Source: Candidatus Campbellbacteria bacterium (GTDB taxonomy: Bacteria > Patescibacteriota > Minisyncoccia > Phycocordibacterales > EsbW-18). Taken from it: a stretch of 64,000 nucleotides of DNA. This document shows positions 1,785 to 15,966 of the stretch, in pieces. The translations under genes were made by a program, and so were the position numbers. The notes below the pieces were generated by a model, which worked only from the letters and a program-made list of their open reading frames with translations, was not told the origin of the DNA and did not search any database. The stretch is taken from the NCBI GenBank assembly GCA_024653945.1, contig JANLIT010000004.1:13281-77280 (forward strand). Direction: 5' to 3'. Position 1 is the stretch's first letter; each line of letters begins with the position of its first letter.

Positions 1785-3005
1785 ATGAAAATACTAGCAA
1801 TAGAAACGAGTTGTGATGAGACGGCCGTGTCCATTCTAGAGTGCTCTGGAGACGCCCATATGCCCTCCTGCGCCGTGCTGGGCACGGGTTTGTACTCACA
1901 GGCATCCAAACACGCCGAATTTGGTGGTGTCTTCCCCAACCTTGCAAAACGAGAACACCAACTAAACCTGACTTCGATGTTAAAAATCGCACTGAAGGAG
2001 TCAGGTTTAAGCACCAAGCACCAAGCACCAGATTCCAAACAAATTCAAAATTTCCAAACAATGCAAGAAATTTTAGAACGGGAGGAAACGCTTTTTAAGA
2101 ACCTACAAGAATATCTCTCAAAAAACCCAAATAATCCTGGGTTTGATGCAATTGCGGTAACCCAAGGTCCAGGTCTTGAACCGGCGCTGTGGGTTGGGAT
2201 TAACTTTGCAAAAGCACTTTCTTTTTTCTGGAATATTCCACTTGTTCCCGTCAATCACATGGAAGGACACATCCTTTCTGTCCTCTCGGACAGAAAGGAA
2301 AATTCCAATGATCAAATAACAAATAACAAAATAGCGTTTCCTGCTATTGCCCTGCTTGTCTCCGGAGGACACACGGAACTTGACCTCGTGCATGATTGGG
2401 GGACGTATGAGCTCATTGGGCAAACGCGCGATGATGCTGTTGGGGAAGCGTTTGATAAAGTTGCACGACTCCTCGGACTTCCCTATCCTGGTGGACCAGA
2501 AATAAGTCGCCTTGCGGCGGAAGCACGAAATCCGAAATCCGAAATCCGAAACACTATCCACCTTCCTCGACCAATGATTGACTCAAATGATTTTGATTTT
2601 TCATTTGCAGGACTTAAAACAGCCGTTCTCTACGCAGTCAAAAAACTTGGCTCGCTCTCTGATGAGCAAAAGAAAGAAATTGCATGTGAATTTGAAAACG
2701 CCGCAGTAGAAGTATTGGTTTCAAAAACAAAAAAGGCACTTGAACACTACAACGCCCCAACACTCATCATCGGCGGAGGCGTTGTCGCAAATACACATTT
2801 ACGTGAAGAAATGAAAAAAATGCTCGCACAGGAATTTCCTGATGTAACACTTCTTCTTCCCACCCACGAACTCTCCACAGATAACGCGGTCATGATAGGA
2901 ATTGCTGGGTACATTGCATATACAAAAAACCCCAACGAATATGGAGTCTTTTCACCTGAACACGGTGACCTGCGCGCACACGGAACCCTTAGACTCTCAA
3001 GTTAG
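1785..3005 (+). CDS. tsaD: tRNA N6-adenosine threonylcarbamoyltransferase TsaD (Kae1/Gcp family) with an insertion of about 40 aa
   Basis: ILAIETSCDETAVSI, GPGLEPALWVG and NHMEGH motifs; an extra segment sits between LKESGL and the GPG motif; an in-frame (gaaatcc)x3 repeat at 2526-2548. Confidence 0.85.
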   Translation: MKILAIETSCDETAVSILECSGDAHMPSCAVLGTGLYSQASKHAEFGGVFPNLAKREHQLNLTSMLKIALKESGLSTKHQAPDSKQIQNFQTMQEILEREETLFKNLQEYLSKNPNNPGFDAIAVTQGPGLEPALWVGINFAKALSFFWNIPLVPVNHMEGHILSVLSDRKENSNDQITNNKIAFPAIALLVSGGHTELDLVHDWGTYELIGQTRDDAVGEAFDKVARLLGLPYPGGPEISRLAAEARNPKSEIRNTIHLPRPMIDSNDFDFSFAGLKTAVLYAVKKLGSLSDEQKKEIACEFENAAVEVLVSKTKKALEHYNAPTLIIGGGVVANTHLREEMKKMLAQEFPDVTLLLPTHELSTDNAVMIGIAGYIAYTKNPNEYGVFSPEHGDLRAHGTLRLSS

Positions 3006-3668
3006 TTTGGGATTAGGTTCCATAACTAAAACCCGTGTCCTCTCAAAATCAGTAGGAATCAAACGAACCAACCGACGATTGACAAAATCTATTTGAAAAA
3101 TCATATCGTTTGCCTTCCAAGACCGTTGTAAACCGTTCGCTAAGAACAGATTCTGAAGGTCCACCATTTCGCGTTCAGTATCTTGTTTCAGCTGGTGTAT
3201 ATCCTCAGCACTCCATCCCGAAACCGCCACATCGAGTTCTTTTTTTGTATAGCCATCTACCTTCTCCATTAAAAAAATACTGTTCTGTTCACTCTCAAAA
3301 AAACCAATCGGTTTCGGCGCAGGTAGTCCGAGGGATTGGATGTATGAAAGGAGATTGTACTCATATAAAGGTTCCCCCGTCTCCTTCAGCATACTTTTTT
3401 CTCGGTTTGTCCACTTCGCAATCGGCGTGACAACCCTGTCTCCCTCTTCCCAATCAGGTAGCTGCCGTACTGCGCCAGGATCGTCGCGAAGAGAACCTTC
3501 TTTGTCATACTTCTTCTCACCACTTTTCATTGGTGTCCCAAGACGCTCGAAGTACCCGAGAGGATCTTGCCTTAATTCTAGGGGAACTAAAGAAGCGTAC
3601 TTCTCCCCAAATTCCATCTTGAATGGTTGATCTGAGGTTTCCGATGTATGAAAAGATTCAAGGCCCAT
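2997..3668 (-). CDS. hypothetical protein (possible kinase-like fold; weak)
   Basis: Long ORF; an IDF-containing segment is weakly reminiscent of Kdo/RIO-type kinase motifs. Confidence 0.3.
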   Translation of the reverse strand: MGLESFHTSETSDQPFKMEFGEKYASLVPLELRQDPLGYFERLGTPMKSGEKKYDKEGSLRDDPGAVRQLPDWEEGDRVVTPIAKWTNREKSMLKETGEPLYEYNLLSYIQSLGLPAPKPIGFFESEQNSIFLMEKVDGYTKKELDVAVSGWSAEDIHQLKQDTEREMVDLQNLFLANGLQRSWKANDMIFQIDFVNRRLVRLIPTDFERTRVLVMEPNPKLT

Positions 3669-3671
3669 ACG

Positions 3672-4754
3672 TTACACAATCAATAAATCTTTTGCGAGAA
3701 GAAGATAGTTGAAGTACGACAAGAAGACAATCAAAATAATGAGTGCGATGCCATGAGAAAATTCACGCGAGTGTCTTTTGTGTACTTGAAAGAGAACCAT
3801 CAACAATGTCACAAAAGCAAGTGCGAGTCCGATGATGATGTATCCCCAACGAACCACGGCTCGTGGTTGTGCTAAAAACTTCTCCCACGCATTTGTATAC
3901 GAAATTCGTTCAACGGGCATAATGACCTCCTCCTTAACTGAAGCTCCTGCCGTATTCGCATCTCGCGCTGGGGTAAACTCCTGTGCTAATGAAACATCTT
4001 GGGCCCCTTCTGGAGCTGGAGCCGGTACTTGGGTCACTGCTGTTGGGGTCACCTCCTGAACTACCACTGGCTCTGAAACGGTCTGCTGGGCTACAGCCAC
4101 GGTAGCTCCCTGTACCTCCTGTGTGCTCGCAACGGCAAGCGTAGGGGCAGTTTGAGCAATCACGGGGGCAACCGCGACTTGTGCTGGCGTACCAAAAAGC
4201 TGAACGACAAAAATGGTCTTCCTGTCCTTGTATTGCCCTGGGACAGCGGCAATACCTATTTCAGTAAAGGTCCCATTCATGATGTTTTCTCGGTGTCCTG
4301 GAGAGTTCATCCATGCTTGTTCAACGTCACCCGAGTCAACAAAGTTCACCGCCAAGTTTTCTCCCGCATTCACAAAATTGTATCCCGCTCGGTAAAACCA
4401 ATACCACGGATTGAGTCCGTCGGGACTTGTGTGTGCAAAATATTCGTTTTCCGCCATGTGCTCCGCCTTCATGCGTGCCGCCTTTTCCAAAATCGGACTC
4501 ACCGTCAAATCAGAAAGTCCTTCTGCTTCTCGGTCCTTGTTTGCAAGGTCAACAAGCACTCCGGGAACAACCGCTGCTGTAAATTCAATACTCGTACGAA
4601 TGAGAAGCGCTTGGAATACAGAAAAACCAAACGTGAGCACGAGAATCGTGGTAAGCGCAACAATACTTGCATCACGAACCATGTGTGGCTTGTGGTCGTT
4701 GCCTTCGTGCGGAATGAAGTAATCTTTAATATGTTTTCGCATAGCTGTTAGCAT
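3672..4754 (-). CDS. CAP/SCP (YkwD-like) domain membrane protein with a Thr/Val/Ala/Pro-rich linker
   Basis: CAP-domain motifs HTSPDG, GENLA, WMNSPGHRENIM; N- and C-terminal hydrophobic segments. Confidence 0.6.
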   Translation of the reverse strand: MLTAMRKHIKDYFIPHEGNDHKPHMVRDASIVALTTILVLTFGFSVFQALLIRTSIEFTAAVVPGVLVDLANKDREAEGLSDLTVSPILEKAARMKAEHMAENEYFAHTSPDGLNPWYWFYRAGYNFVNAGENLAVNFVDSGDVEQAWMNSPGHRENIMNGTFTEIGIAAVPGQYKDRKTIFVVQLFGTPAQVAVAPVIAQTAPTLAVASTQEVQGATVAVAQQTVSEPVVVQEVTPTAVTQVPAPAPEGAQDVSLAQEFTPARDANTAGASVKEEVIMPVERISYTNAWEKFLAQPRAVVRWGYIIIGLALAFVTLLMVLFQVHKRHSREFSHGIALIILIVFLSYFNYLLLAKDLLIV

Positions 4755-4763
4755 GAGTATATC

Positions 4764-5414
4764 CTACTTCGTATCGTCGCTATCAACAAGTGTCGCGTAG
4801 ACAACAAGTACTCGGTCGTATTCCTGTGTCTCTTGGCTATATGTTCCTGAGCAGGTAATAAGACGCAAACCTGGAAACGTTATATCGCCGTATACTTTTT
4901 CTGTCGGAAAATTGCTTCTATCGTACCGTTCAAGTACTGTTACACGAAATGTTGCTGTTGTTCCGTCTGCGCGATCTACATACACATAGTCGCCTTCTGT
5001 GAGTTGACCAAGAGATAAAAACACACCAGGGCCTTCATACGAGTCAACATGTCCGAGCACAACAGCAGGACCAATTTCACCAGGTGTCGGACCATAGGTG
5101 TACCATCCAACTTCTGTGTATCCTTTTGGAATTTCAATTTCACCATTTTCTTGCAGACCAAGAGGAACAAAATTAGTGTCCACAAATATATCTGGAATAC
5201 GCAAACGCATTGGGTCTGAATCTTCAAGCGGGCGCGCTGGATCAAAAATCGGTCGTGAAGATGTTGCAAGAGTTTCTTGAGAATTTTTTTGTGTCAAATA
5301 TGTGGTGACACCTCCTTGTGATGCTATAAGGATTCCAAAACCAACGACAAGCAACACAACGCCCACAGATATAAGTACTTTTTTTGTGTTCATTTCTGAA
5401 TTAAACAACATCAT
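4764..5414 (-). CDS. sortase family transpeptidase
   Basis: N-terminal TM anchor; His motif VVLGHVDS; catalytic TLxTC motif LRLITCSG; conserved downstream Arg. Confidence 0.75.
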   Translation of the reverse strand: MMLFNSEMNTKKVLISVGVVLLVVGFGILIASQGGVTTYLTQKNSQETLATSSRPIFDPARPLEDSDPMRLRIPDIFVDTNFVPLGLQENGEIEIPKGYTEVGWYTYGPTPGEIGPAVVLGHVDSYEGPGVFLSLGQLTEGDYVYVDRADGTTATFRVTVLERYDRSNFPTEKVYGDITFPGLRLITCSGTYSQETQEYDRVLVVYATLVDSDDTK

Positions 5415-5482
5415 ATTCGCTGTACATGGTAACTCTTTTTGCCCGTTGTGTCAACCCCATCGTGGGTTGGGGCCGTCTTAAT

Positions 5483-5559
5483 GCAAAACCCGCCCAAAAG
5501 GCGGGTTTTGCGCTTTTTTGTTTTCCGAAGCGAAGCTTCCCTTTTGGAAGCTTCGCTTC
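5483..5559 (-). terminator. tandem perfect hairpins downstream of the 605-aa surface-protein gene
   Basis: 12-bp stem GCAAAACCCGCC/GGCGGGTTTTGC and 14-bp stem GAAGCGAAGCTTCC/GGAAGCTTCGCTTC; the second hairpin recurs at 7488-7520. Confidence 0.6.
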
Positions 5560-5572
5560 TTGTTTTAAATCT

Positions 5573-7390
5573 TTAGTAAAGACACATCTTCAATCCTCCA
5601 AATCCTGTAGCAGGAGCACCGAGTGGAAGAATGGATGTTTGCTCACCCAAGACCTCACCAAGAACCTCTCCGCCACCATCTGTGGATGAGTTTCGACGAC
5701 GGAAGCCACTTCCTCCACCGTCGTCGTCATCGTCTCCGTTTGTATCATCACCACCAGTATCTTCGTGAGAATATGAGTTGGTGAATGTACATGTTACATC
5801 CTGATCTTCAGAGAGATACACAGTTACAGACCTCTCTGGTTTATTCGTGTCATACTCAGTTCCATAGTTACAACTAATGAGAGACAGGCTCCAATCAACA
5901 CCTGCATCTACTTCACTGATTGTGTACGTTCCTGAAGAAAGATTCGACAGTACCTCAGGTTCATCATTTGCAGAAAGATCAAACGATGATTCATCCCAGT
6001 AATTAAATGTAAATATGTGGGTTCCATCCGCACCTTCGTTTACCTCCTTGTCAATTGTGATTGAACCTCCGTTCTGATGATTACCAAAGTCCTTGAGCGA
6101 GAAGGTGCCGGGTGTTCCTTCTCCGTCGCCCTGAATCCGATGTCCAACAGTGCCGTTTGCGCAGGTAACCGTTCCGTCCGAAGCGGAAATCGGCGAGGTC
6201 TGTTCCCAACCGCTTTGGACCTCTTCGCAGACAACGTAATTAAGCTCTGGGTCTAAACTGTCGAAGGAGTAGTTGCCGTCGCCATCGGTCGTAGTCGTGT
6301 CCGCGGGCGTCTCTTCGATTACAGTCGTATCTTCGTCGATTGTGTACGGGAACAGGTTGATGGTCCATCCGTCGATGCCGGATTCGTCATCGCTCTGCCG
6401 ATCGCTGTTCACGTCGTTCCACTTCATGCCAGTAACAATGGATCGCGTGGTATTGGTAAAGGTACAAGTCACATCATCGCCACTTTCCACAGTGATTCGT
6501 TCGCCATCTTCAACGGCACTACCAGTGCTATCACCATCGTAAATACATTCTACGTCGGCTAATTGCCAGGCGCTCTGCTGGGTTTCCAGAACATCATATG
6601 TTCCAGGAGCGAGGGAGATGGGACTGGAAGTCGCGGTGTTATCTTCTGGGTCAGCGTCAGGTGTAAGATCAACCCCGTACAAGAACACGGTTGGATCTAT
6701 TCCCGTCACCAAAAATTCAAAGTTGGGGGTCCTTCTAGGGTCAACTGGCTCACCTTGCACGAGACCTTGAAAATCCCCAATCTTCACAATCGTAAGGGTT
6801 GCTGGAGGTATACATGTCTCGCTGTCCACAGTCAGTCTGAATATAACTCCTGCTGGATTACCCGGTCCGTCGGGTTCGTCGTTTGTTGCCTCAATCGTCA
6901 GCGTGTTCGTACCGCTCAAAAGAGAGCTGGCTGGGATAGGGTGTGTTCCAACAATCTGCCAATTGTCACCAGAGCCTACCGCATTGCCGTTGATGGTGAC
7001 AACGTAACTGTTGTCCGCGGTGATATCAAGAGAAGCTCCTGTTGGTGTTCCAACAATCTCAAACGTTCTCGTGAAGGTCAGCGTGCCGGCTGGGTGCGAG
7101 CCTGTGTCATCGGCAGGGACTTTGTCTGCATCCCAGATCCACGTAGCACCTGATGGAAGTGGATCATAGTCATCCCATACGGAGTGTGGAGTAACAGCAA
7201 CCGCATTACCACTACCTACTTGTGTTTCCGAATCACTGACAAGTGTCTGTGTGCTTGGGTCACACGCTGGTGCTACCGTTGCATTTGCGTTCAGTGGACT
7301 AAAAGAAAATACCCCAATAAAAAGAAGTGCGCCCAAAAGCCCCAGCCCAATAGTTCGATGTGTTTTATACGATGTAGTAATGAGAGCCAT
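5573..7390 (-). CDS. secreted adhesin-like surface protein (605 aa) with SdrD-B/Cna-B-like domains; paralog of the 1639-aa gene upstream
   Basis: Signal peptide MALITTSYKT...NANA; SdrD-B/Cna-B-like segments with Thr-Cys-Thr-Phe-Thr-Asn (TCTFTN) motifs and GMKWNDVNSDRQ; C-terminal 45 aa identical to the paralog (ends LPLGAPATGFGGLKMCLY). Confidence 0.7.
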   Translation of the reverse strand: MALITTSYKTHRTIGLGLLGALLFIGVFSFSPLNANATVAPACDPSTQTLVSDSETQVGSGNAVAVTPHSVWDDYDPLPSGATWIWDADKVPADDTGSHPAGTLTFTRTFEIVGTPTGASLDITADNSYVVTINGNAVGSGDNWQIVGTHPIPASSLLSGTNTLTIEATNDEPDGPGNPAGVIFRLTVDSETCIPPATLTIVKIGDFQGLVQGEPVDPRRTPNFEFLVTGIDPTVFLYGVDLTPDADPEDNTATSSPISLAPGTYDVLETQQSAWQLADVECIYDGDSTGSAVEDGERITVESGDDVTCTFTNTTRSIVTGMKWNDVNSDRQSDDESGIDGWTINLFPYTIDEDTTVIEETPADTTTTDGDGNYSFDSLDPELNYVVCEEVQSGWEQTSPISASDGTVTCANGTVGHRIQGDGEGTPGTFSLKDFGNHQNGGSITIDKEVNEGADGTHIFTFNYWDESSFDLSANDEPEVLSNLSSGTYTISEVDAGVDWSLSLISCNYGTEYDTNKPERSVTVYLSEDQDVTCTFTNSYSHEDTGGDDTNGDDDDDGGGSGFRRRNSSTDGGGEVLGEVLGEQTSILPLGAPATGFGGLKMCLY

Positions 7391-7487
7391 ATGTATATGA
7401 TTAGTGACCCACCTTTAGTGGCGAGCTCTGATTAATTAACAACTTTTATTAAAATACTTTTCCCGAGGGTTAAACCTCTGCTTAAAA

Positions 7488-7520
7488 GAAGCGAAGCTTC
7501 CCTTCTGGAAGCTTCGCTTC
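7488..7520 (-). terminator. hairpin downstream of the 1639-aa gene; duplicate of the hairpin at 5527-5559
   Basis: GAAGCGAAGCTTCC-CTTCT-GGAAGCTTCGCTTC perfect stem; a REP-like GAGGGTTAAACCTC lies next to it at 7465-7478. Confidence 0.55.
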
Positions 7521-7534
7521 TTGCTTTTAAATCT

Positions 7535-10500
7535 TTAGTAAAGACACATCTTCAATCCTCCAAAGCCTGTGTTTGGAGCTCCGAGTGGAAGAATGGATGT
7601 TTGTTCACCCAAAACCTCACCAAGAACCTCTCCGCCACCATCTGTGGATGAGTTTCGACGAAAACCTGAGCTTCCGCCACCATTACTTCCACCACCATCG
7701 TCTGTTGTAATTGTAGGATTTTGGTGGTTACCGAAGTCAATACCAACCAGAGAATCTCCTAGAGAAAGTTCCACTTCATGGCCGGCCCCTTCACCCTGAC
7801 AGAGCGTGTTGCCCGACGGGTATGTCTTCTCCCATCCGTCCTGGCCCGTCTCACAGACTATGTATGTGTCTGGAATAAGGTCGGAGAATGAGTAGTTTCC
7901 ATCAGCGTCGGTTTCCGTTGACACGATGAACCCGCCTTCACTATCGTTTGAAGCGTGGATCGCCCAGCCCTGAAGACCTGGTTCACCCGAATCCTTGATA
8001 CCATCAGCGTTAAGGTCATTCCACTTCATACCCGAGATTGAGCCTCTGTCATCATCGTTTGTAAAGACACACGTAATTGTTTCTCCGTTAGACAGAACAA
8101 TGTTGCCTGAATTAATATCGGTGTGTCCTGTGTCATCTGATGTACACGATACACTTTGAAGATTCCATCCAGGTAGAACTGTCTCAGTCACTGAATACGA
8201 GGTGCCAACATTAAGGTCACCACTGTTGTGTTCCTGATTTGCTTCAAGCAAGAAGTTATCAGTACTCCAACTTGGGTCAAATTCAAACGCAGTGTTTGTG
8301 TCGCTTACTTCTGTCACCTCCTTGCGAACGATAATTCGTTCGCCATCATCGTCATCGTCGTCTCCACTTGTTTGAGGGTCATAGGTGTTGGTGAATGTGC
8401 AGGTAACGTCTTCATCCTCACCAAGTGTAATTTCAACATCACCTTCACCTAGGTCGTGAAAAAAATCAACGTCGTCGCCACAATCAACATCCGTGACATA
8501 CCAATCGTCGTCGGTGCTAGTTAATTCAGTAACGATATAGCTTCCAGCTACAAGACCTGAGAATGTTTCTGGATCATTGCTTGCTGTAAGGAGTATGTCG
8601 TCATCGCCCCCATCGAGGTCAAATGAGAATGCTTCATCTTGACTTCCCCCCACAACAACCTTATCAATCGTAATAGAACCTCCGTCCTGGTGATTGCCGA
8701 AATCAAAACCATCTCGGTCATCAGTACCTGTGTCAATAATAAGTTGGTACCCAACACCATCATCACACGCTACAGCATATCCGTCAGAAATCTCTGGTGA
8801 TGTTTGATTCCAACCACTTCCTTGTGCTTCACACACTTTGTAATCGCCATAAGAAATATTGAACTGGTAGTAACCGTCTGAATTTGTTTCCATTGAGCCA
8901 ACGAGGACATCCTCGTCATCATAGATATTGATAGTCCAACCTTCAATTGTTGGTTCGTCGTAATCTTTGTATCCATCATTATCAAGATCGTTGTACTTCA
9001 CACCATTGATGTTTCCTTCACCACCTCCCTGTTGTCCGTCTCTCTCGTTGATAAGGTTGAAGGTGTACACACCCTGATCACTGTCGATATTCCAAACAGT
9101 ACCTCCTCCCGCACCACTGAAGTATGACCAGCCATCCTGCATAACTTCGTCCACAGTGTACTCATCAAGAGCAACATCATTGAAGGTTACACAACCTGTT
9201 TCATCAGTAATACCTGTGTACCCCTTGTAGATATCAACCGAGAGTGTTCCTGAGTTATCATCAAACCATCCTGGGTTCTGCACACCACTATCACCATCAA
9301 AGATGGTAAATGGTACTGGACCAGTAACGCTTGGTGTGAACCCTTGGAGGTATGCATGTGGAGTATTGTATGCACCCCAGTTGCCGAATCCAAGTCCACT
9401 AAAGTCGCCACCAATGTTGAGTTCAAGAATTTCTGTTGGGTACCCTGTGTATCCGTCCATCTGGGTTGCCCAAGAATCTATTGTAGAGTATTCAGAGTCA
9501 ACAAGGTTTGCACCACCTTGGTTACTCCACGTACCGTCTGCAAAAGCAAGGTATGATGTTCCCGCGTCAAGCGATGTTGAGTCAGTACCGTTGATATCCT
9601 CTGAATCAACAATCAAGTCCGATTCTACAGAATCACCCTTGAGGAAGACCGTCCATCCTGAAAGACCCTCGTTCTGGCCCACCTCATACTTACAAATCGT
9701 AACTTCATTGTGGTGTTCTGGTTCTTGTGGTGGCACACAGAAGAGCGCCACGTTGTCGAGGAACGTCCCCTCGGAGTTTGGAGTACCGAGGTCTTTAAAT
9801 GCGATGTCTGTTGAACTGTCTCCGGCTACAAATGAGTGTGCATACGTGTTCCATACCGTGTTTAGATTTGCACTTCCATCAAGACTCACCGCGTTAAGCA
9901 CGTTGCCATCTTGTGAGACTTCAAGATTGTTTTCTGAAGTTCCTGTTCCTGGTCGTGGAGAGAATGCGTATGAAAGTTGATACGTTCTTCCTGGAACCGT
10001 TGCAATAGCTTCTGAAATGATAGTTGATGCCTCTTCACCATTTGGACCACTTGCGTGACCGTTCCAATCAGAATCGAGCTCAGCGTACTGTTCAAGCTCA
10101 TATGGCAACCATCCGTTTACTCCACCGTGAAGTTCTGCATTTGCTGTAGCGGGAGCGCCTACAAATGCACCCGCCCATGCAACCGTCCAATCAAGACCTG
10201 AAAAACCTGAAGCAAAGATGTCCCATCCAGAACCATCGGTAACGTCTGGCAATTCAAATCCTCCGTTTGCAATAAGATTTTGTTCAGGATTACACTCGCG
10301 AGCGTTCACAAGGTTAAATGTTTGTGTGGGTTCATTTACTGTGACCTGACTTCCTGCATTAGTTGCATCATCTGCATCAGTAAGGTTTTCCCAACCCTCC
10401 TGCATAAATTCATCAAGAGTATATGTGCCATAAGGAACCGCTTCAAATGACACACAACCATCTTTATTCGTTGTTCCTGAATAGTCGTGTTCATCAGTAT

Positions 10501-12454
10501 CATCGGCCATAAATGTATCATCACCGACATACTCATCAAGCCACACCTCCCAATCTGAGAGAAGGTTTTCTGGGTCAACTGAGTTTTCATACTTACAAAT
10601 CGTTATGTCTGATGTGTCTTCAACTGGTGGTTGCTCACAAGATGTCTGCTCTTCACCGTTCACCACAAGTTGGTAGATACCTGCTGCGGGGTTCCTTTCA
10701 GGAAGCTGTTCGTATCCTGCCATACCAATGTTTTCAACCGTCAATTCAATAGTGTTCCATCCTGAATCAACATAACTGGTGACATCCGTAGGACCAGTAA
10801 CAGCTCCATAGTTAAATTCGGTTATGTTTGAGATAACAGGGTCACCGTTGATAGTAATCCAGTAGCGGTTATCTGCAGCAAGATTAAGAGTTGCGTCGTT
10901 TACAGGACCGTCAACAAAGAAATCTTTTGTAAATGTTTTTGCCACAGTTTGTGATCCGTCAACAACTTGATAGCTGTCCCAAATCCAAGTAGCTACACTG
11001 TTGAGTGCTGTGGTCCATGCACCGTGAATCCACGCGGCAACTGCATCACCGTTACCAACGCCTTCGTCACCCGCTTCACTCACCACCTCTACACGACACG
11101 CTTCTGCCACCAAGATAGGAACGTTCCACGCAACACAGTAGTAGTCTGTGTCCGGTGTGGTGCTAAGCCATTCCCAGTTATCATAGTGAAGTATGTCATC
11201 AGAACAATAGATTTCTGCTGAAACATTTTCTGTTGTGTTTTGACCTGTAAAAGGAATGTAATTTGCGTCAAAAAGTTCACGTACACGAAGCTGACTATCG
11301 TTTGAAATATCAACCACTGCAGTACCAGCAACAAATGCTGTCCATCCTGCTCCTGCTGAGCCTGGAGTATTGTCGTCAGGGTCTCCAGCGGTGCTGTAAC
11401 TCCATTCAAAGTCCCACGGAACGAGCTGACAGCCGTTATTTGGGTTTGCTGCGAGCCAGCGAGTTGCAGTATTTGATGTCACAGTTGTAAGTGTTGATGT
11501 ACCTGCGCCCCAGTTTGGAAGGTCACTTTCTTCATCACACTCAATTTTTTGTGCGTGAAGGGTAACAGTTTCTTCTGATGGAACGACGCCTTCGTTATAT
11601 GCAACACAGTGGGCAGTTCCGTCAGTGGGAACGAATGTAAGCTCTTGGTTATCGTTTGTACCAGAAGTATCTCCGTCACCTTCACAGTAAAGACCTAAAA
11701 CATCTTCGTTTGGAAGTTTGTTACCGGCGCCGTCGGTTTCAACAATAAGATAGCGTCCAGCTGATGGGAGATTGTCTATAGTGAGTATTCCGCTACCGTT
11801 TGTTGAACCATCTTCAATGAATGGTCCGTCTAATTCTGGGTAAGGACCATCGGTATCATCTGCTTCGCCGTGAACATACCCAAAAGTCTTGCCCGACTGC
11901 AAAGCACATGCTTCTGGTACATCTCCGCCTACACCATTATCGTCGCGATTTACGGTTGTACCGTCAGGACACACGTATTTTGTAATTTCAATTGAACCCG
12001 TTGGGTCATCACTGCCTATATCTTCACAAGCATCCCCGATATTATTCTGATTTCCGTCTACCTGATCTGGATTTACAGCATTTACACAGTTATCACATGC
12101 GTCTCCAACACCATCCCCATCTGCATCTTCTTGGTTAGGATTTGCAACCTCAGAACAATTATCTGAGTCATCGGGAATATCATCATCGTCTGTGTCTACT
12201 GGATCTGGTGCGGGACAAGCGCCACTTTGATCGGGCATAACATCTCCGTGGTCAAGATGTGTTTGAAGAGCGTTTGCATTAAAGGTTAACAAAGAGAAAT
12301 TGCCGTCGTCGTCTTTGTGACAAACAGTAACATCTCCTGCTGGTTGTGCATTTACTAACGAGCCAAAAGAAAACACTCCAACAACAAGGAGTGCGCCCAA
12401 AAGCCCCAACCCAATAGTTCGATATGTTTTATACGAGGTAGTAATGAAAGCCAT
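7535..12454 (-). CDS. giant secreted adhesin-like protein (1639 aa) with thrombospondin type-3-like Ca-binding repeats and several SdrD-B/Cna-B-like domains
   Basis: Signal peptide; D-rich DxDxDG/NC..NP.Q repeats (about aa 83-150); segments with TCTFTNT/TCVFTND motifs and GMKWNDLNADG; C-terminus identical to the 605-aa paralog. Confidence 0.75.
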   Translation of the reverse strand: MAFITTSYKTYRTIGLGLLGALLVVGVFSFGSLVNAQPAGDVTVCHKDDDGNFSLLTFNANALQTHLDHGDVMPDQSGACPAPDPVDTDDDDIPDDSDNCSEVANPNQEDADGDGVGDACDNCVNAVNPDQVDGNQNNIGDACEDIGSDDPTGSIEITKYVCPDGTTVNRDDNGVGGDVPEACALQSGKTFGYVHGEADDTDGPYPELDGPFIEDGSTNGSGILTIDNLPSAGRYLIVETDGAGNKLPNEDVLGLYCEGDGDTSGTNDNQELTFVPTDGTAHCVAYNEGVVPSEETVTLHAQKIECDEESDLPNWGAGTSTLTTVTSNTATRWLAANPNNGCQLVPWDFEWSYSTAGDPDDNTPGSAGAGWTAFVAGTAVVDISNDSQLRVRELFDANYIPFTGQNTTENVSAEIYCSDDILHYDNWEWLSTTPDTDYYCVAWNVPILVAEACRVEVVSEAGDEGVGNGDAVAAWIHGAWTTALNSVATWIWDSYQVVDGSQTVAKTFTKDFFVDGPVNDATLNLAADNRYWITINGDPVISNITEFNYGAVTGPTDVTSYVDSGWNTIELTVENIGMAGYEQLPERNPAAGIYQLVVNGEEQTSCEQPPVEDTSDITICKYENSVDPENLLSDWEVWLDEYVGDDTFMADDTDEHDYSGTTNKDGCVSFEAVPYGTYTLDEFMQEGWENLTDADDATNAGSQVTVNEPTQTFNLVNARECNPEQNLIANGGFELPDVTDGSGWDIFASGFSGLDWTVAWAGAFVGAPATANAELHGGVNGWLPYELEQYAELDSDWNGHASGPNGEEASTIISEAIATVPGRTYQLSYAFSPRPGTGTSENNLEVSQDGNVLNAVSLDGSANLNTVWNTYAHSFVAGDSSTDIAFKDLGTPNSEGTFLDNVALFCVPPQEPEHHNEVTICKYEVGQNEGLSGWTVFLKGDSVESDLIVDSEDINGTDSTSLDAGTSYLAFADGTWSNQGGANLVDSEYSTIDSWATQMDGYTGYPTEILELNIGGDFSGLGFGNWGAYNTPHAYLQGFTPSVTGPVPFTIFDGDSGVQNPGWFDDNSGTLSVDIYKGYTGITDETGCVTFNDVALDEYTVDEVMQDGWSYFSGAGGGTVWNIDSDQGVYTFNLINERDGQQGGGEGNINGVKYNDLDNDGYKDYDEPTIEGWTINIYDDEDVLVGSMETNSDGYYQFNISYGDYKVCEAQGSGWNQTSPEISDGYAVACDDGVGYQLIIDTGTDDRDGFDFGNHQDGGSITIDKVVVGGSQDEAFSFDLDGGDDDILLTASNDPETFSGLVAGSYIVTELTSTDDDWYVTDVDCGDDVDFFHDLGEGDVEITLGEDEDVTCTFTNTYDPQTSGDDDDDDGERIIVRKEVTEVSDTNTAFEFDPSWSTDNFLLEANQEHNSGDLNVGTSYSVTETVLPGWNLQSVSCTSDDTGHTDINSGNIVLSNGETITCVFTNDDDRGSISGMKWNDLNADGIKDSGEPGLQGWAIHASNDSEGGFIVSTETDADGNYSFSDLIPDTYIVCETGQDGWEKTYPSGNTLCQGEGAGHEVELSLGDSLVGIDFGNHQNPTITTDDGGGSNGGGSSGFRRNSSTDGGGEVLGEVLGEQTSILPLGAPNTGFGGLKMCLY

Positions 12455-12814
12455 ATGTATATGATTAGTGACCTACCTTTTTGGGTAGGCTATTAAAAAC
12501 GTTTTTTATAAAAATACCCCTGTGTACAACTAATTATCCCTCTACAAACCGTCTCCACCTCGGAGATCAAATTTTTCTAAAGATTACACCGTCATTTTAA
12601 TCTAGTCAAGCCCCACAAGTCAAAGACATTTTTAAAGATTTTGTGTATAGACGGTGGATAATAATACAATACAAAAGAATAATTGTGTCAAACGACTTTC
12701 CTGTTCATTGACAAAATTCTTTTTACTCATTTTGATAATTTTCTTTTTTCTCACCCCATCCTTTTCAACACAACAAAAAGAGTTCAATCCCCCACCCCAC
12801 CAAGATTAATATCT

Positions 12815-12852
12815 CCCAAAGGTTAAACCTTCGCAAAGGTTTAACCTTTGGG
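12815..12852. repeat. REP-like palindromes (2 copies) of the family CAAAGGTT(T)AAACCTTYG
   Basis: caaaggttaaaccttcg followed by caaaggtttaacctttgg; the same palindrome family flanks the RAYT gene. Confidence 0.65.
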
Positions 12853-12867
12853 TACCATACATATCCA

Positions 12868-12996
12868 TAAAGGACATTATAAAAGACATTTAAATATGGA
12901 TGCGATGTTTATATTTTTATAAAGGACATAAAGGACATTATCTCGCCCCACCTTCCACCACCAAAGGTTAAACCTTTGGGCGTTGCGTCCTTTATA
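12868..12996. promoter_or_regulatory. array of five TAAAGGACAT-like direct/inverted repeats in the intergenic region upstream of the giant adhesin gene
   Basis: taaaggacat at 12868, 12920 and 12929; taaaagacat at 12879; inverted copy gtcctttata at 12987. Confidence 0.35.
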
Positions 12997-13043
12997 AAAA
13001 TTTCATCCCTGTGGTGTAAATTACCGAACGAAGGTTTAACCTT
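12961..13043. repeat. two REP-like palindromes at the 5' side of the RAYT gene
   Basis: ccaaaggttaaacctttgg (12961-12979) and cgaaggtttaaccttcg (13027-13043). Confidence 0.65.
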
Positions 13044-13052
13044 CGTAAATCT

Positions 13053-13710
13053 TATGGGAAGAAAAGTGGCACTTGCTCTGGGTGAGTTTTACCATCTCTA
13101 TAACCGGGGCGTCGAAAAAAGAATAGTTTTCACTAATAAATATGACTATGATCGTTTTTTGTCCCTGATGTATCTATGCAATACCACAAAATACGTAGAT
13201 GCTCGAGAGCAAGGAGGTACGCTTCAAAAAGCCTACAGAACAAGGGGTGGCAATCGAATAGTTGATATCTGTACGTATTGCCTTATGCCAAACCATTTTC
13301 ACATTCTCATAAAGGAAATGGCCGAGGGTGGTGCCAGTAAATTTATGCAAAAACTAACCACAGGATACACAATGTACTTCAATAAACGATATAAACACAC
13401 CGGGGCACTTTTTCAAGGAACATACAAATCATCACACGCAAATACCGACCAATATCTTTCCTACCTTATTGCGTATATTCATCTCAATCCTGTCAAAATT
13501 ATTGAACCGAACTGGAAAAAAGACGGCATCCTGAATTTACAAAGAGCTGAAATGTACCTAAAAGAATACCCGCACTCAAGTTATCTCGACTATCTCGGCA
13601 AAACACGCGTTCATAATTGCATCATAAATAAGAGTGCTTTGCCTGAGTACTGTAGTACTCCACAAGATTTTATGGAAAGTGTTAAAACTTGGCTCTCCCC
13701 GAAGGTTTAA
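13053..13710 (+). CDS. REP-associated tyrosine transposase (IS200-like Y1 transposase, RAYT)
   Basis: HuH motif NHFHILI and catalytic-Tyr region YLIAYIHLNPV; flanked on both sides by REP palindromes; the ORF track starts at 12976, but the two 5' REPs lie inside that extension, so Met 13053 is preferred. Confidence 0.75.
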
Positions 13711-13734
13711 CCTTCGCGAAGGTTAAACCTTCGG
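13700..13734. repeat. two REP-like palindromes overlapping the RAYT stop codon
   Basis: cgaaggtttaaccttcg and cgaaggttaaaccttcg. Confidence 0.65.
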
Positions 13735-13779
13735 GAAACGGCTCTTTCAGCTTTATCTTTCTGTTGCTAGAATGGTCGT

Positions 13780-15966
13780 ATGACTCCTGACAAATTCCTC
13801 AAACCATATAATCCAGTACAAACAGAAAAAGACACATACACACGATGGGAAGAGAGCGGTTATTTCAATCCTGATGTGTGTGTACAAAAGGGGGTTACCT
13901 CGGCCGACGCCCCGCCATTTTGTATCGTCCTTCCCCCACCAAATGTGACGGGTACACTCCATCTTGGCCACGCACTTGAAGACTCACTACAAGATGCAAT
14001 GATTCGCTTTGCCCGTATGCGTGGCAAAAAAACTCTCTGGGTGCCCGGAACTGACCATGCGGCAATCGCCACACAAACGAGAGTTGAAAAAATTCTTGAA
14101 AAAGAGGGGGTCCGTCGTAGTGACTTGGGCCGTGAAAAATTCCTAAAACGAGTAAATGCCTTCGCACAAAATTCACACGATACGATTGTGTCACAAGTAC
14201 GCGCAACAGGCGCGTCACTTGATTGGTCGCGTGAAGCATTCACCCTCGATGAAAAACGTTCGTTCGCCGTGCGTACCACATTCAAGCGAATGTATGATGA
14301 AGGGCTCATCTACCAGGGCAAGAAAATTGTTAACTGGGACCCGAAGGGTCAGACGGTTATTTCGGATGATGAAATTGAGTATGTGGAAGAAAAAACAAAA
14401 TTGTATTATTTCAAGTATGGCCCATTTGAAATCAGCACCGCACGACCAGAAACGAAATTCGGTGACAAATATGTCGTCATGCATCCAGCGGACACACGAT
14501 ACGCGGGATACACACATGGGCAGAAAATTGAACTTGAGTGGATTAACGGGCCAATCACTGCAACCGTCGTTAAGGACGAAAGTATTGATATGGAATTCGG
14601 TACTGGGGTGATGACTATTACACCGTGGCACAGTATGGTTGACTTTGATATGGCAGTACGCCACGGCCTCGACTACGAACAGATTATTGACTCACACGGA
14701 CGTCTGCTCCCTATTGCACAAGAATTTGCGGGAATGAAAATTACCGACGCGCGAGAAAAAATTGTTGAAAAACTACAACAAAAAGGTCTTGTTACCCGCG
14801 TCGAAGAAAACTATGTACACAATATTGCTACCGCACAACGCTCTGGCGGAAAAATCGAACCGCAGATAATGAAACAATGGTTCGTGAACGTAACCAAAGA
14901 ATTTGTTCTTCCCCACTCGACCATCCCAAGCATCACTTCAGGAGCAACGACCACCCTCAAGGAAATTATGCGTAAGGGTGTCCTGGGCGGAGCAATACAC
15001 GTTCTTCCCGACCGGTTTGAAAAAATATATTTCCACTGGATAGACAACCTCCGTGATTGGTGTATCTCGCGACAAATTTGGTATGGACACCAAATACCAG
15101 TGTGGTATCGGGGAGATGAAATATATGTTGGTATTGAAGCACCCCAGGGTAACGATTGGATTCAGGATGAAGATACGCTTGATACGTGGTTTTCTTCGGC
15201 TTTGTGGCCGTTTTCTACCCTCGGATGGCCCCAAGAGACATCAGACCTACAAACATTCTTCCCAAATACAGTTATGGCCCCTGGATACGAAATACTCTTT
15301 TTCTGGGTTGCGCGAATGATTCTCATGAGTGGCTACCTACTTGGCAGTGTTCCGTTTAAGACAGTGTACCTGCACGGCATGCTCCGAGACGCGCAAGGAC
15401 GTAAATTTAGTAAATCTGCAGGAAACGGGGTAGATCCTTTGGATATTATCAAATCGTACGGGGCTGACGCATTGCGCATGTCGCTCGTTGTTGGTATCGG
15501 TCCTGGTAATGACAGCAACTTTACTGAAGACAAGGTGCGCGCATATAAAAAGTTTTCAAATAAAATTTGGAACGTCACACGATTTGTCCTAGACAACACA
15601 GAGGGTGTTCCAAAGGAGCAACCGGAACTTCGCGCTGAAGACATCGCTCGTCTTGAAGAACTTTCGGCTCTTACAAAAGAAGTTACCGAAGAGTATGAAC
15701 AATATCAGCTCTACCTTGCAGGAGAAAAACTCTATCATTATGTGTGGCACACACTTGCCGATGTTATTCTTGAGGAACGAAAGGATATTCTTGTTGGTAT
15801 TGATGAGAAAGCAAAACGAAGTGCACAGTGGACCTTGATGCATATCCTAACCACATCACTCAAACTTCTCCACCCACTTATGCCATTCGTTACCGAGGAA
15901 ATTTGGAGTTCACTTCCCCACACAGAAACTGATATGATTATGGTAGCTCCATGGCCACGTACATAA
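13780..15966 (+). CDS. valS: valyl-tRNA synthetase (short form, 728 aa, lacking the C-terminal coiled coil)
   Basis: HIGH-region PPPNVTGTLHLGHA; KMSKS as KFSKSAGNG; ValRS-like editing and anticodon-binding segments. Confidence 0.85.
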   Translation: MTPDKFLKPYNPVQTEKDTYTRWEESGYFNPDVCVQKGVTSADAPPFCIVLPPPNVTGTLHLGHALEDSLQDAMIRFARMRGKKTLWVPGTDHAAIATQTRVEKILEKEGVRRSDLGREKFLKRVNAFAQNSHDTIVSQVRATGASLDWSREAFTLDEKRSFAVRTTFKRMYDEGLIYQGKKIVNWDPKGQTVISDDEIEYVEEKTKLYYFKYGPFEISTARPETKFGDKYVVMHPADTRYAGYTHGQKIELEWINGPITATVVKDESIDMEFGTGVMTITPWHSMVDFDMAVRHGLDYEQIIDSHGRLLPIAQEFAGMKITDAREKIVEKLQQKGLVTRVEENYVHNIATAQRSGGKIEPQIMKQWFVNVTKEFVLPHSTIPSITSGATTTLKEIMRKGVLGGAIHVLPDRFEKIYFHWIDNLRDWCISRQIWYGHQIPVWYRGDEIYVGIEAPQGNDWIQDEDTLDTWFSSALWPFSTLGWPQETSDLQTFFPNTVMAPGYEILFFWVARMILMSGYLLGSVPFKTVYLHGMLRDAQGRKFSKSAGNGVDPLDIIKSYGADALRMSLVVGIGPGNDSNFTEDKVRAYKKFSNKIWNVTRFVLDNTEGVPKEQPELRAEDIARLEELSALTKEVTEEYEQYQLYLAGEKLYHYVWHTLADVILEERKDILVGIDEKAKRSAQWTLMHILTTSLKLLHPLMPFVTEEIWSSLPHTETDMIMVAPWPRT

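Follow-up and report, generated by a model that had tools for sequence, protein, structure and literature searches.

Domesticated transposases that live alongside non-autonomous repeats of their own are exemplified above all by the REP-associated tyrosine transposase (RAYT) and its REPINs, doublets of repetitive extragenic palindromes (REPs) that form a single hairpin. To our knowledge, this relationship has been studied almost solely in Proteobacteria and Cyanobacteria; for the gene-and-palindrome unit called the REPtron, the work of Nunvar in 2010 is reportedly a source. Here we describe a locus in 64,000 nt of one contig from a Candidatus Campbellbacteria bacterium (the window), a member of the Candidate Phyla Radiation (CPR, Patescibacteria). 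The region studied, 12815-13745, holds a single intact open reading frame (ORF), a Y1/HUH tyrosine-transposase-like gene, with copies of a 17-nt palindrome clustered around it. We put a probability of about 68% on the reading that the locus is a REPtron/TIRtron-like cassette, in which a CPR enzyme of the RAYT class is accompanied by its cognate 17-nt hairpins and these are occasionally, and mostly locally, copied.

Elements of this kind have been known as REPtrons and TIRtrons since 2010-2013. The REPtron consists of an Escherichia coli-type RAYT (TnpA-REP, YafM) with flanking REPs and bacterial interspersed mosaic elements (PMC3333891, Ton-Hoang 2012; PMC3479197, Messing 2012, PDB 4ER8). TnpA-Y1 subclass 2.1 (PMC6006769, Quentin 2018), equivalent to RAYT Group 1 (PMC5581495, Bertels 2017) and to most TIRYTs (PMC3733652, Di Nocera 2013), has the motifs NH[YF]H, FQ and Y[IV]HLNP, an SS pair in the proximal tail, a length of ~238 amino acids (aa) and a C-terminal extension resembling a helix-turn-helix (HTH), and its genes have been reported to lack REP-like hairpins nearby (PMC6006769). 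In subclass 2.4 (RAYT Group 4; Cyanobacteria, Bacteroidetes), REPs are inserted in frame into the transposase's own gene without disrupting it (PMC6006769).

The gene in the window begins at the ATG at 13054, where the alignment with its homologs also begins, and neither at the TTG at 12976 nor at the internal Met39. With its start at Met39, the public annotation (P0001, 'transposase', 180 aa) misses the N-terminal strand EFYHLYNRG, which is present in all homologs; the true product is 218 aa long. Correcting the start and replacing the bare label 'transposase' is a gain for the annotation of this gene.

A profile search confirmed the Y1 transposase that the initial annotation, calling it IS200-like, had read from the motifs HFHIL and YLIAYIHLNPV: the protein scores 38.7 bits against Pfam Y1_Tnp (PF01797), well above the cut-off of 23, and all members of an alignment of 25 family sequences that includes it match the model as well. 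The sole NCBIfam model to match at E<=0.01 is REP_Tyr_transpos (NF047646), with 42.8 bits, below its equivalog cut-off of 80. The window protein retains the family residue in all 49 invariant columns of the alignment. The HUH and tyrosine motifs also held up on careful alignment, with H81, H83, Y141, N145 and P146 invariant across the 25 members and the family profile aligning MPNHFH with lPeHmH of 4ER8. The tyrosine motif reads Y---NP, the form that marks class 2 (PMC6006769), and not the Y---Q of IS200.

The structural comparison pointed the same way. Searching the PDB with the single protein (phmmer) gave no match and a profile search gave weak ones; the fold search was decisive. The AlphaFold2 model of the protein has a pLDDT of 88, and its best Foldseek match in the PDB is 4ER8, a complex of E. 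coli TnpA-REP with a REP hairpin (E 2.3e-6, TM 0.69), followed by the TnpA proteins of IS608 and ISDra2. The gene encodes a Y1/HUH enzyme of the RAYT class.

Around this gene, six copies of the palindrome CRAAGGTTWAACCTTYG lie within 920 bp, where none would be expected. Four are upstream, including one adjacent pair, and two are at the stop codon (Table 1). The initial annotation was right that palindromes cluster here, having counted five, and a pair does lie at the stop codon; the two that it placed within the 5' region of the gene exist but lie upstream of the true start. Its further statement that the palindrome also occurs elsewhere does not hold for the window, in which the palindrome is confined to the immediate flanks of the gene. 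The shared core AAGGTTWAACCTT begins at 12819, 12836, 12964, 13031, 13702 and 13719, all inside 12819-13731, and no copy arose in 100 shuffles; a looser pattern, AGGTTNAACCT, recovers the identical six sites and nothing more. Pattern scans found no copies in the other 62.7 kb. The hairpin type of this cassette can be written as CRRRGGTTNAACCYYYG.

Table 1. Features of the cassette and its immediate neighbours, in window coordinates.
Feature	Position	Strand	Remarks
SpaA/SdrD-type surface protein gene (left neighbour)	7535-12454	minus	1,639 aa; divergent from the Y1 gene
Left doublet	12815-12852		copies 1 (centre A) and 2 (centre T); 38-nt super-palindrome, REPIN-like
17-mer copy 1	12817-12833
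17-mer copy 2	12834-12850
Hairpin copy 3, CCAAAGGTTAAACCTTTGG	12961-12979		-7.4 kcal/mol, z -3.3
17-mer copy 3	12962-12978
Hairpin copy 4, ACGAAGGTTTAACCTTCGT	13028-13046		ends 8 nt before the ATG; -7.6 kcal/mol, z -4.4
17-mer copy 4	13029-13045
Y1/HUH tyrosine-transposase-like gene	13054-13710	plus	218 aa; ATG 13054, stop TAA 13708-13710
Decayed internal hairpin site, CAAGGAGGTACGCTT	13210-13224	plus	encodes QGGTL; palindrome lost in the window
HUH motif codons, H81-F82-H83 (HFHIL)	13294-13302	plus	invariant in the 25-sequence alignment; aligns with HmH of TnpA-REP 4ER8
Codon of putative catalytic Tyr141 (YIHLNPVK, within YLIAYIHLNPV)	13474-13476	plus	invariant in the 25-sequence alignment; aligns with YIyiNPVK of 4ER8
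Right doublet	13698-13735		copies 5 (centre T) and 6 (centre A); perfect 38-nt super-palindrome
17-mer copy 5	13700-13716		TAA in its loop
17-mer copy 6	13717-13733
valS (right neighbour)	13780-15966

Within each adjacent pair, one copy has A and its partner T at the centre, so that the two copies are inverted relative to one another and each pair is a super-palindrome. As single-stranded DNA, the left doublet folds into a single 17-bp hairpin (-18.7 kcal/mol, z -8.8 against shuffles), and so does the right one (-19.0 kcal/mol, z -7.2), which is 100% self-complementary, is 87% complementary to the left doublet and also encodes the last codons and stop of the gene. The doublets thus have the shape of a REPIN. 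Between them, copy 3, with a TATAAA 3' of it at 12994, probably corresponds to the standard promoter-proximal hairpin of the family, and copy 4 is surplus to the usual family layout. The spacer around copy 3 (12858-13001) has structure of its own, with three occurrences of ATAAAGGACAT and a perfect 15-nt inverted repeat (12913-12927 / 12987-13001) enclosing the hairpin; it may be part of the cassette. A pseudogene remnant of a Y1 gene in the upstream DNA (12455-13060, this spacer included) was considered and dropped, as hmmsearch of the six-frame translation came back empty. A supposed further relative of the palindrome, at 7465-7478 downstream of the surface-protein gene, did not survive scrutiny either: it has only the 9-mer GGTTAAACC in common with the family (0.63 expected by chance), does not fold significantly (z -0.5 against shuffles) and adjoins a separate terminator-like hairpin.

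Could short palindromes have piled up by chance in the AT-rich DNA between genes, beside the remnant of a transposase to which they are unrelated? The lack of copies elsewhere in the window would fit such an account. So would a scan of a 596-Gb genome collection for the exact 17-mer, which returned 110 matches where our own calculation gives ~70 by chance, many of those outside the CPR resembling unrelated terminator hairpins. But six copies were found against none expected or seen in shuffles, the gene is intact with every invariant residue kept, and most of 80 independent loci repeat this architecture (below); we regard chance as refuted. The scan did lead us to reject the idea that its matches mark a pan-bacterial repeat. 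Beyond their closeness to the chance expectation, matches outside the CPR are located in long hairpins no less often than those within it, so that single matches in unrelated genomes are probably coincidental terminator hairpins. The informative matches are those in CPR genomes with multiple copies. In one of these (the metagenome-assembled genome H51-bin105_1), a homolog 41% identical to the window protein has the very same 17-mer on its flanks (L002), and two of the six copies of the genome lie on other contigs (L079, L102). Two other loci show the 17-mer in repeated settings: embedded in a 44-nt tandem repeat unit in a Paceibacterota sequence (L062, 1688-1790), and as two direct copies 23 nt apart in a Saccharibacteria sequence (L098, 6887-6926).

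The locus resembles the REPtron in its Y1/HUH fold and Y---NP motif, in that TnpA-REP is the nearest of the solved structures, and in having a gene, present once in the 64 kb, that is flanked by its own palindromes, inverted doublets among them. As in the REPtron, the type of hairpin follows the gene copy, as described below. Some relatives have two divergent paralogs on one contig. The protein is longer than TnpA-REP (218 against 165 aa) and has a distinct C-terminal tail, besides scoring 42.8 against the equivalog cut-off of 80.

The initial annotation held such an arrangement to be unexpected in a reduced, CPR-like genome, a surprise that fades on searching for homologs. There are at least 7,960 matches, the best of them 55-66% identical, and all those with a name are from Patescibacteria. 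An exhaustive scan clustered at 50% identity gave 17,608 clusters at E<=1e-3, 5,456 at E<=1e-10 and 394 at E<=1e-30. Judging by every name given in the sources, the family is large and belongs to CPR/Patescibacteria, a lineage outside the coverage of the subclass 2.1 surveys.

We surveyed the flanks of 80 homolog loci from metagenomes (81 with the window itself). Perfect stems of 9 bp or more are found in 60% of the 100-nt segments upstream of the gene and in 51% of the segments downstream or at the stop codon, as against 1.8% of 2,567 control segments from the same contigs, and in 49 of 81 loci an identical hairpin core flanks the gene on either side. In most loci, 15-38 nt (median 31) separate the end of the upstream hairpin from the ATG. 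In 61/79 loci a -10-like hexamer lies between the two, 3' of the hairpin, which is therefore placed at the promoter and outside the mRNA. For the downstream hairpin, the start mostly falls between -28 and +13 of the stop codon (median 1 nt past it), and the hairpin often overlaps the stop, which accounts for the C-terminal tails QGSTL, TEV and PKV in the alignment. Doublets were seen again in several loci.

The hairpin sequence itself varies widely from locus to locus (TAGGCAAGACCTA, AAGGACAGTCCTT, GAGGGTAACCCTC, GGAGGAATTGCCTCC and AAGGTTNAACCTT are examples), most hairpins having a GG-N5-CC apex, and this variation follows the gene. Proteins whose hairpins share an apex are more alike than others (58% vs 49% identity). 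In one relative (L137), two paralogs 3.8 kb apart on the same contig have different hairpins, GGGGGTTTCACCCCC and AAGGTTTAACCTT, and a second contig (L171) likewise carries two paralogs with differing hairpins.

This layout bears on the possibility that the palindromes are purely regulatory or RNA elements, serving upstream as an operator or insulator and downstream as a 3' stabiliser or terminator, with no processing of DNA by the enzyme. The upstream hairpin stands just 5' of the -10-like hexamer in the 61/79 loci mentioned, the downstream hairpin overlaps the stop codon, and many 17-mer matches in other genomes look like bidirectional terminators (A-run, hairpin, T-run). Yet the same hairpin is found on both sides of the gene and co-varies with it between loci and between paralogs, and identical copies occur in frame within the coding sequence at two positions, neither of which a purely regulatory role explains. 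Moreover, no T-tract adjoins the hairpins in the window, where a terminator scan made no call, and the nearest related structure (4ER8) is of an enzyme in complex with such a hairpin. A solely regulatory function is thus improbable. As a secondary role for the promoter-proximal hairpin, that of operator or insulator is plausible because of where it is placed.

The in-frame copies just mentioned occur in 16 homolog loci, over two loops of the protein. In eleven loci, a third hairpin copy identical to those on the flanks lies in frame at aa ~50-58; examples are a 31-nt perfect palindrome encoding KLREGLTFTEL (L113) and CAAGGTTCAACCTTG, which encodes QGSTL. In five further loci the internal copy is at aa ~86-95. 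The in-frame hairpin site CAAGGTNNNACCTTG falls on the protein motif QGxTL (aa 53-57), which is nearly invariant, and this conserved peptide appears to derive from a DNA palindrome, one that in the window has decayed (Table 1). In-frame hairpins within the element's own gene recall subclass 2.4. There, however, the insertions are between HUH and Tyr, whereas here the main site precedes HUH and the second follows it; the REPs of subclass 2.4 have GT[AG]G feet and are long or double-footed; and its motifs are NH[IFV]H, WQ and YIxNNP.

Copies also occur at some distance from the gene, in small numbers. The closest homolog (P0003, 64% identity; locus L191) has TACGGAGGTTWAACCTCCGTA hairpins on both sides and, within 12.7 kb, three extra copies of this type spread over two further intergenic regions. 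More than ~400 nt from the gene, the locus-specific hairpin was found 12 times in 359 kb of relatives' flanks and 0 times in 62.7 kb of the window. Hairpins were also encountered inside unrelated genes: doublets of the GGTTNAACC palindrome lie in frame within uvrC of two different CPR genomes, just ahead of RIEGYDIS; L097 has a second doublet further on, and another doublet forms a 38-nt perfect palindrome inside an 880-aa ORF. The positions are 785-815 and 1020-1051 in L097, and 7526-7556 and 2962-3000 in L015. These in-frame doublets look like intragenic REPIN-like insertions.

An alternative in which the enzyme does act on the hairpins is that the whole unit (~0.75-0.93 kb) is an autonomous insertion sequence (IS) of the IS200/IS605 type, with the hairpins as subterminal ends and transposition by single-strand peel-and-paste. 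Like IS200 (subclass 1.1), it is a unit of ~0.7-0.9 kb with a Y1 gene as its sole ORF and a hairpin near each end, at fixed distances from the ends, and it would share the HUH/Tyr chemistry on single-stranded DNA. In addition, the window copy and its closest homolog are in unrelated neighbourhoods, and at some loci a short motif, TTATCCACA, lies outside both hairpins in the manner of a target or cleavage sequence. Against this, IS200 encodes a Y---Q TnpA of ~150 aa and is present in genomes in multiple near-identical copies, and its end hairpins are imperfect and on the same strand. The present enzyme is of the class 2 Y---NP type and matches no IS200/IS605 TnpA model of NCBIfam at E<=0.01. 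There is one gene copy in 64 kb, and the exact protein is known from one contig (a cluster of one member). Where a protein is found on many contigs from different samples (P0088 on 24, P0098 on 15), its neighbours are always the same; paralogs on the same contig are only 38-46% identical to each other; and the end hairpins are often inverted (26/44 loci), which is unsuited to excision from one strand. We found neither the same protein at different sites nor near-identical copies, as IS200/IS605 elements would show, and the gene behaves as a resident, single-locus gene and not as an active insertion sequence. That the unit is an IS is, on this evidence, unlikely.

We favor instead the cassette of enzyme and cognate hairpins, ordered as hairpin(s), promoter, Y1/HUH gene and hairpin(s). 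On the model of TnpA-REP from E. coli, its enzyme would bind the hairpin in single-stranded DNA and would use Tyr141 and the metal site of the HUH motif to cut and rejoin beside it. If the enzyme now and then copied and pasted hairpins, this would give rise to the local pile-up of six copies, to the REPIN-like doublets and to the in-frame copies of relatives. For the window alone, the element is one of a recognisable kind that is apparently quiescent.

The same cassette has much in common with the TIRtron and subclass 2.1. The motifs NHFH, FQ (in LFQG) and YIHLNP, the SS in the tail (S175-S176) and the length of 218 aa fit the subclass 2.1 row in Table 1 of PMC6006769, as far as a comparison of motifs goes, and lengths of about 220-240 aa are usual on both sides. 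The gene lies between terminal inverted repeats that are at times self-complementary and can overlap the gene ends, and the flanking repeats are low-copy, all as in the TIRtron; the published TIR motif, GGGGWSAS, is absent here. Unlike in subclass 2.1, hairpins are the rule in the CPR family.

Several considerations weigh against the cassette reading. Hairpin binding, cleavage and hairpin mobility we infer by analogy, while the anatomy, the layout across the family, the correspondence between hairpin and gene, the fold and the catalytic motifs are shown directly. The hairpins of the window lack the GT[AG]G guide foot of REPtron hairpins: their feet are CCCAAAGG, ACCAAAGG, AACGAAGG and CCCGAAGG, with neither GTAG nor GTGG, and the apex is GG-N5-CC. 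Nor are they dispersed in high copy as in the REPtron; instead of tens to hundreds of intergenic copies, the window has none away from the gene and relatives have a few extras, so that hairpin copying, if real, is weak or tightly local. Inverted orientation of the upstream and downstream copies is a tendency and no law, with 26 inverted and 18 direct among 44 loci scorable by an asymmetric loop. Placement in subclass 2.1 would follow from motif comparison only, and the C-terminal tail gave no Pfam match to an HTH or Bac_DnaA_C domain (HTH_23 and HTH_28 included) in the 25 members even at E<=5. The closest homolog is in a different neighbourhood, the window cassette lying between an adhesin gene and valS and that of P0003 inside a pilus cluster, and no synteny was found between the two loci; the cassette has thus moved or been transferred over long timescales. 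The label 'classic RAYT/REP' given initially is too strong. The RAYT-class enzyme, the cognate flanking palindromes and the REPIN-like doublets bear it out, but the locus is not classic because there is no GTAG foot, no dispersal in the 62.7 kb and a score of 42.8, under the cut-off of 80.

A wider claim can be put forward, although on the whole we find it somewhat doubtful: that CPR/Patescibacteria carry a very large and so far undescribed RAYT-class clade, in fixed cassettes with their own co-diversifying GG-N5-CC hairpins at promoter and stop, and that the enzyme places hairpin copies close by, some of them in frame within the gene that encodes it (QGxTL being an old insertion), and in some genomes within other genes such as uvrC. 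Our literature search found no paper tying RAYT-like genes to CPR/Patescibacteria. If the claim is true, these cassettes would show the RAYT/REPIN relationship in minimal form and at low copy number among the smallest bacterial genomes, and, if it is true across the CPR, the logic of that relationship would reach into genomes of the most reduced kind. A further consequence would be that subclass 2.1-like enzymes, reported without hairpin partners, do have them, a contrast with the published record that holds only if the motif-level placement does. Matched enzyme-hairpin pairs would form a natural series for the study of hairpin recognition by Y1 enzymes where no GTAG guide is present, and short in-frame palindromes in CPR genes would be accounted for.

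The TTATCCACA boxes noted above resemble DnaA boxes (T[TG][AT]TCCACA). They occur beside or just outside the flanking hairpins in 14/80 loci, within ~100 nt of the hairpins in those we name here (L111, L113, L114, L119, L125, L127, L134, L137, L158, L166, L173, L174, L188), at a density of 0.63 per kb near the gene vs 0.10 per kb elsewhere. At L173 a perfect terminal inverted repeat has this motif as its outer end. In the window it is present only as TTATCCACC, on the minus strand at 12653-12661. A location of the cassettes at oriC was discarded as the source of the boxes, the neighbours at L125 and L137 not being dnaA or dnaN. The motif may mark a target or a site of cleavage, or may offer a second site for binding.

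The initial annotation also suggested that the element may drive rearrangement of the adjacent adhesin locus. Y1 homologs at two other loci (L191, L199) are likewise near pilin or SpaA genes, and three gene contexts at first seemed to point that way. A general tie was nevertheless rejected: when adhesin, pilin and sortase queries were compared by BLAST with the 80 homolog loci, a single sortase match was returned, and an effect on neighbouring adhesin genes has no support.

The wider neighbourhood contains eleven tRNA genes in the 64 kb (Ser, Glu, Phe, Arg, Gly, Trp, Tyr, Cys, Leu x2, Lys), none of which adjoins the cassette. The surface-protein gene to the left is part of a minus-strand, sortase-dependent cluster (2997-12454) that encodes the 1,639-aa SpaA/SdrD protein, a 605-aa SpaA-like protein, a sortase and a CAP-domain protein. 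At 7487-7530, downstream of the SpaA gene, lies a long GC-rich inverted repeat (aagcgaagcttcc...ggaagcttcgctt) with A and T runs on its sides; it is unrelated to the palindrome family and is probably a bidirectional terminator.

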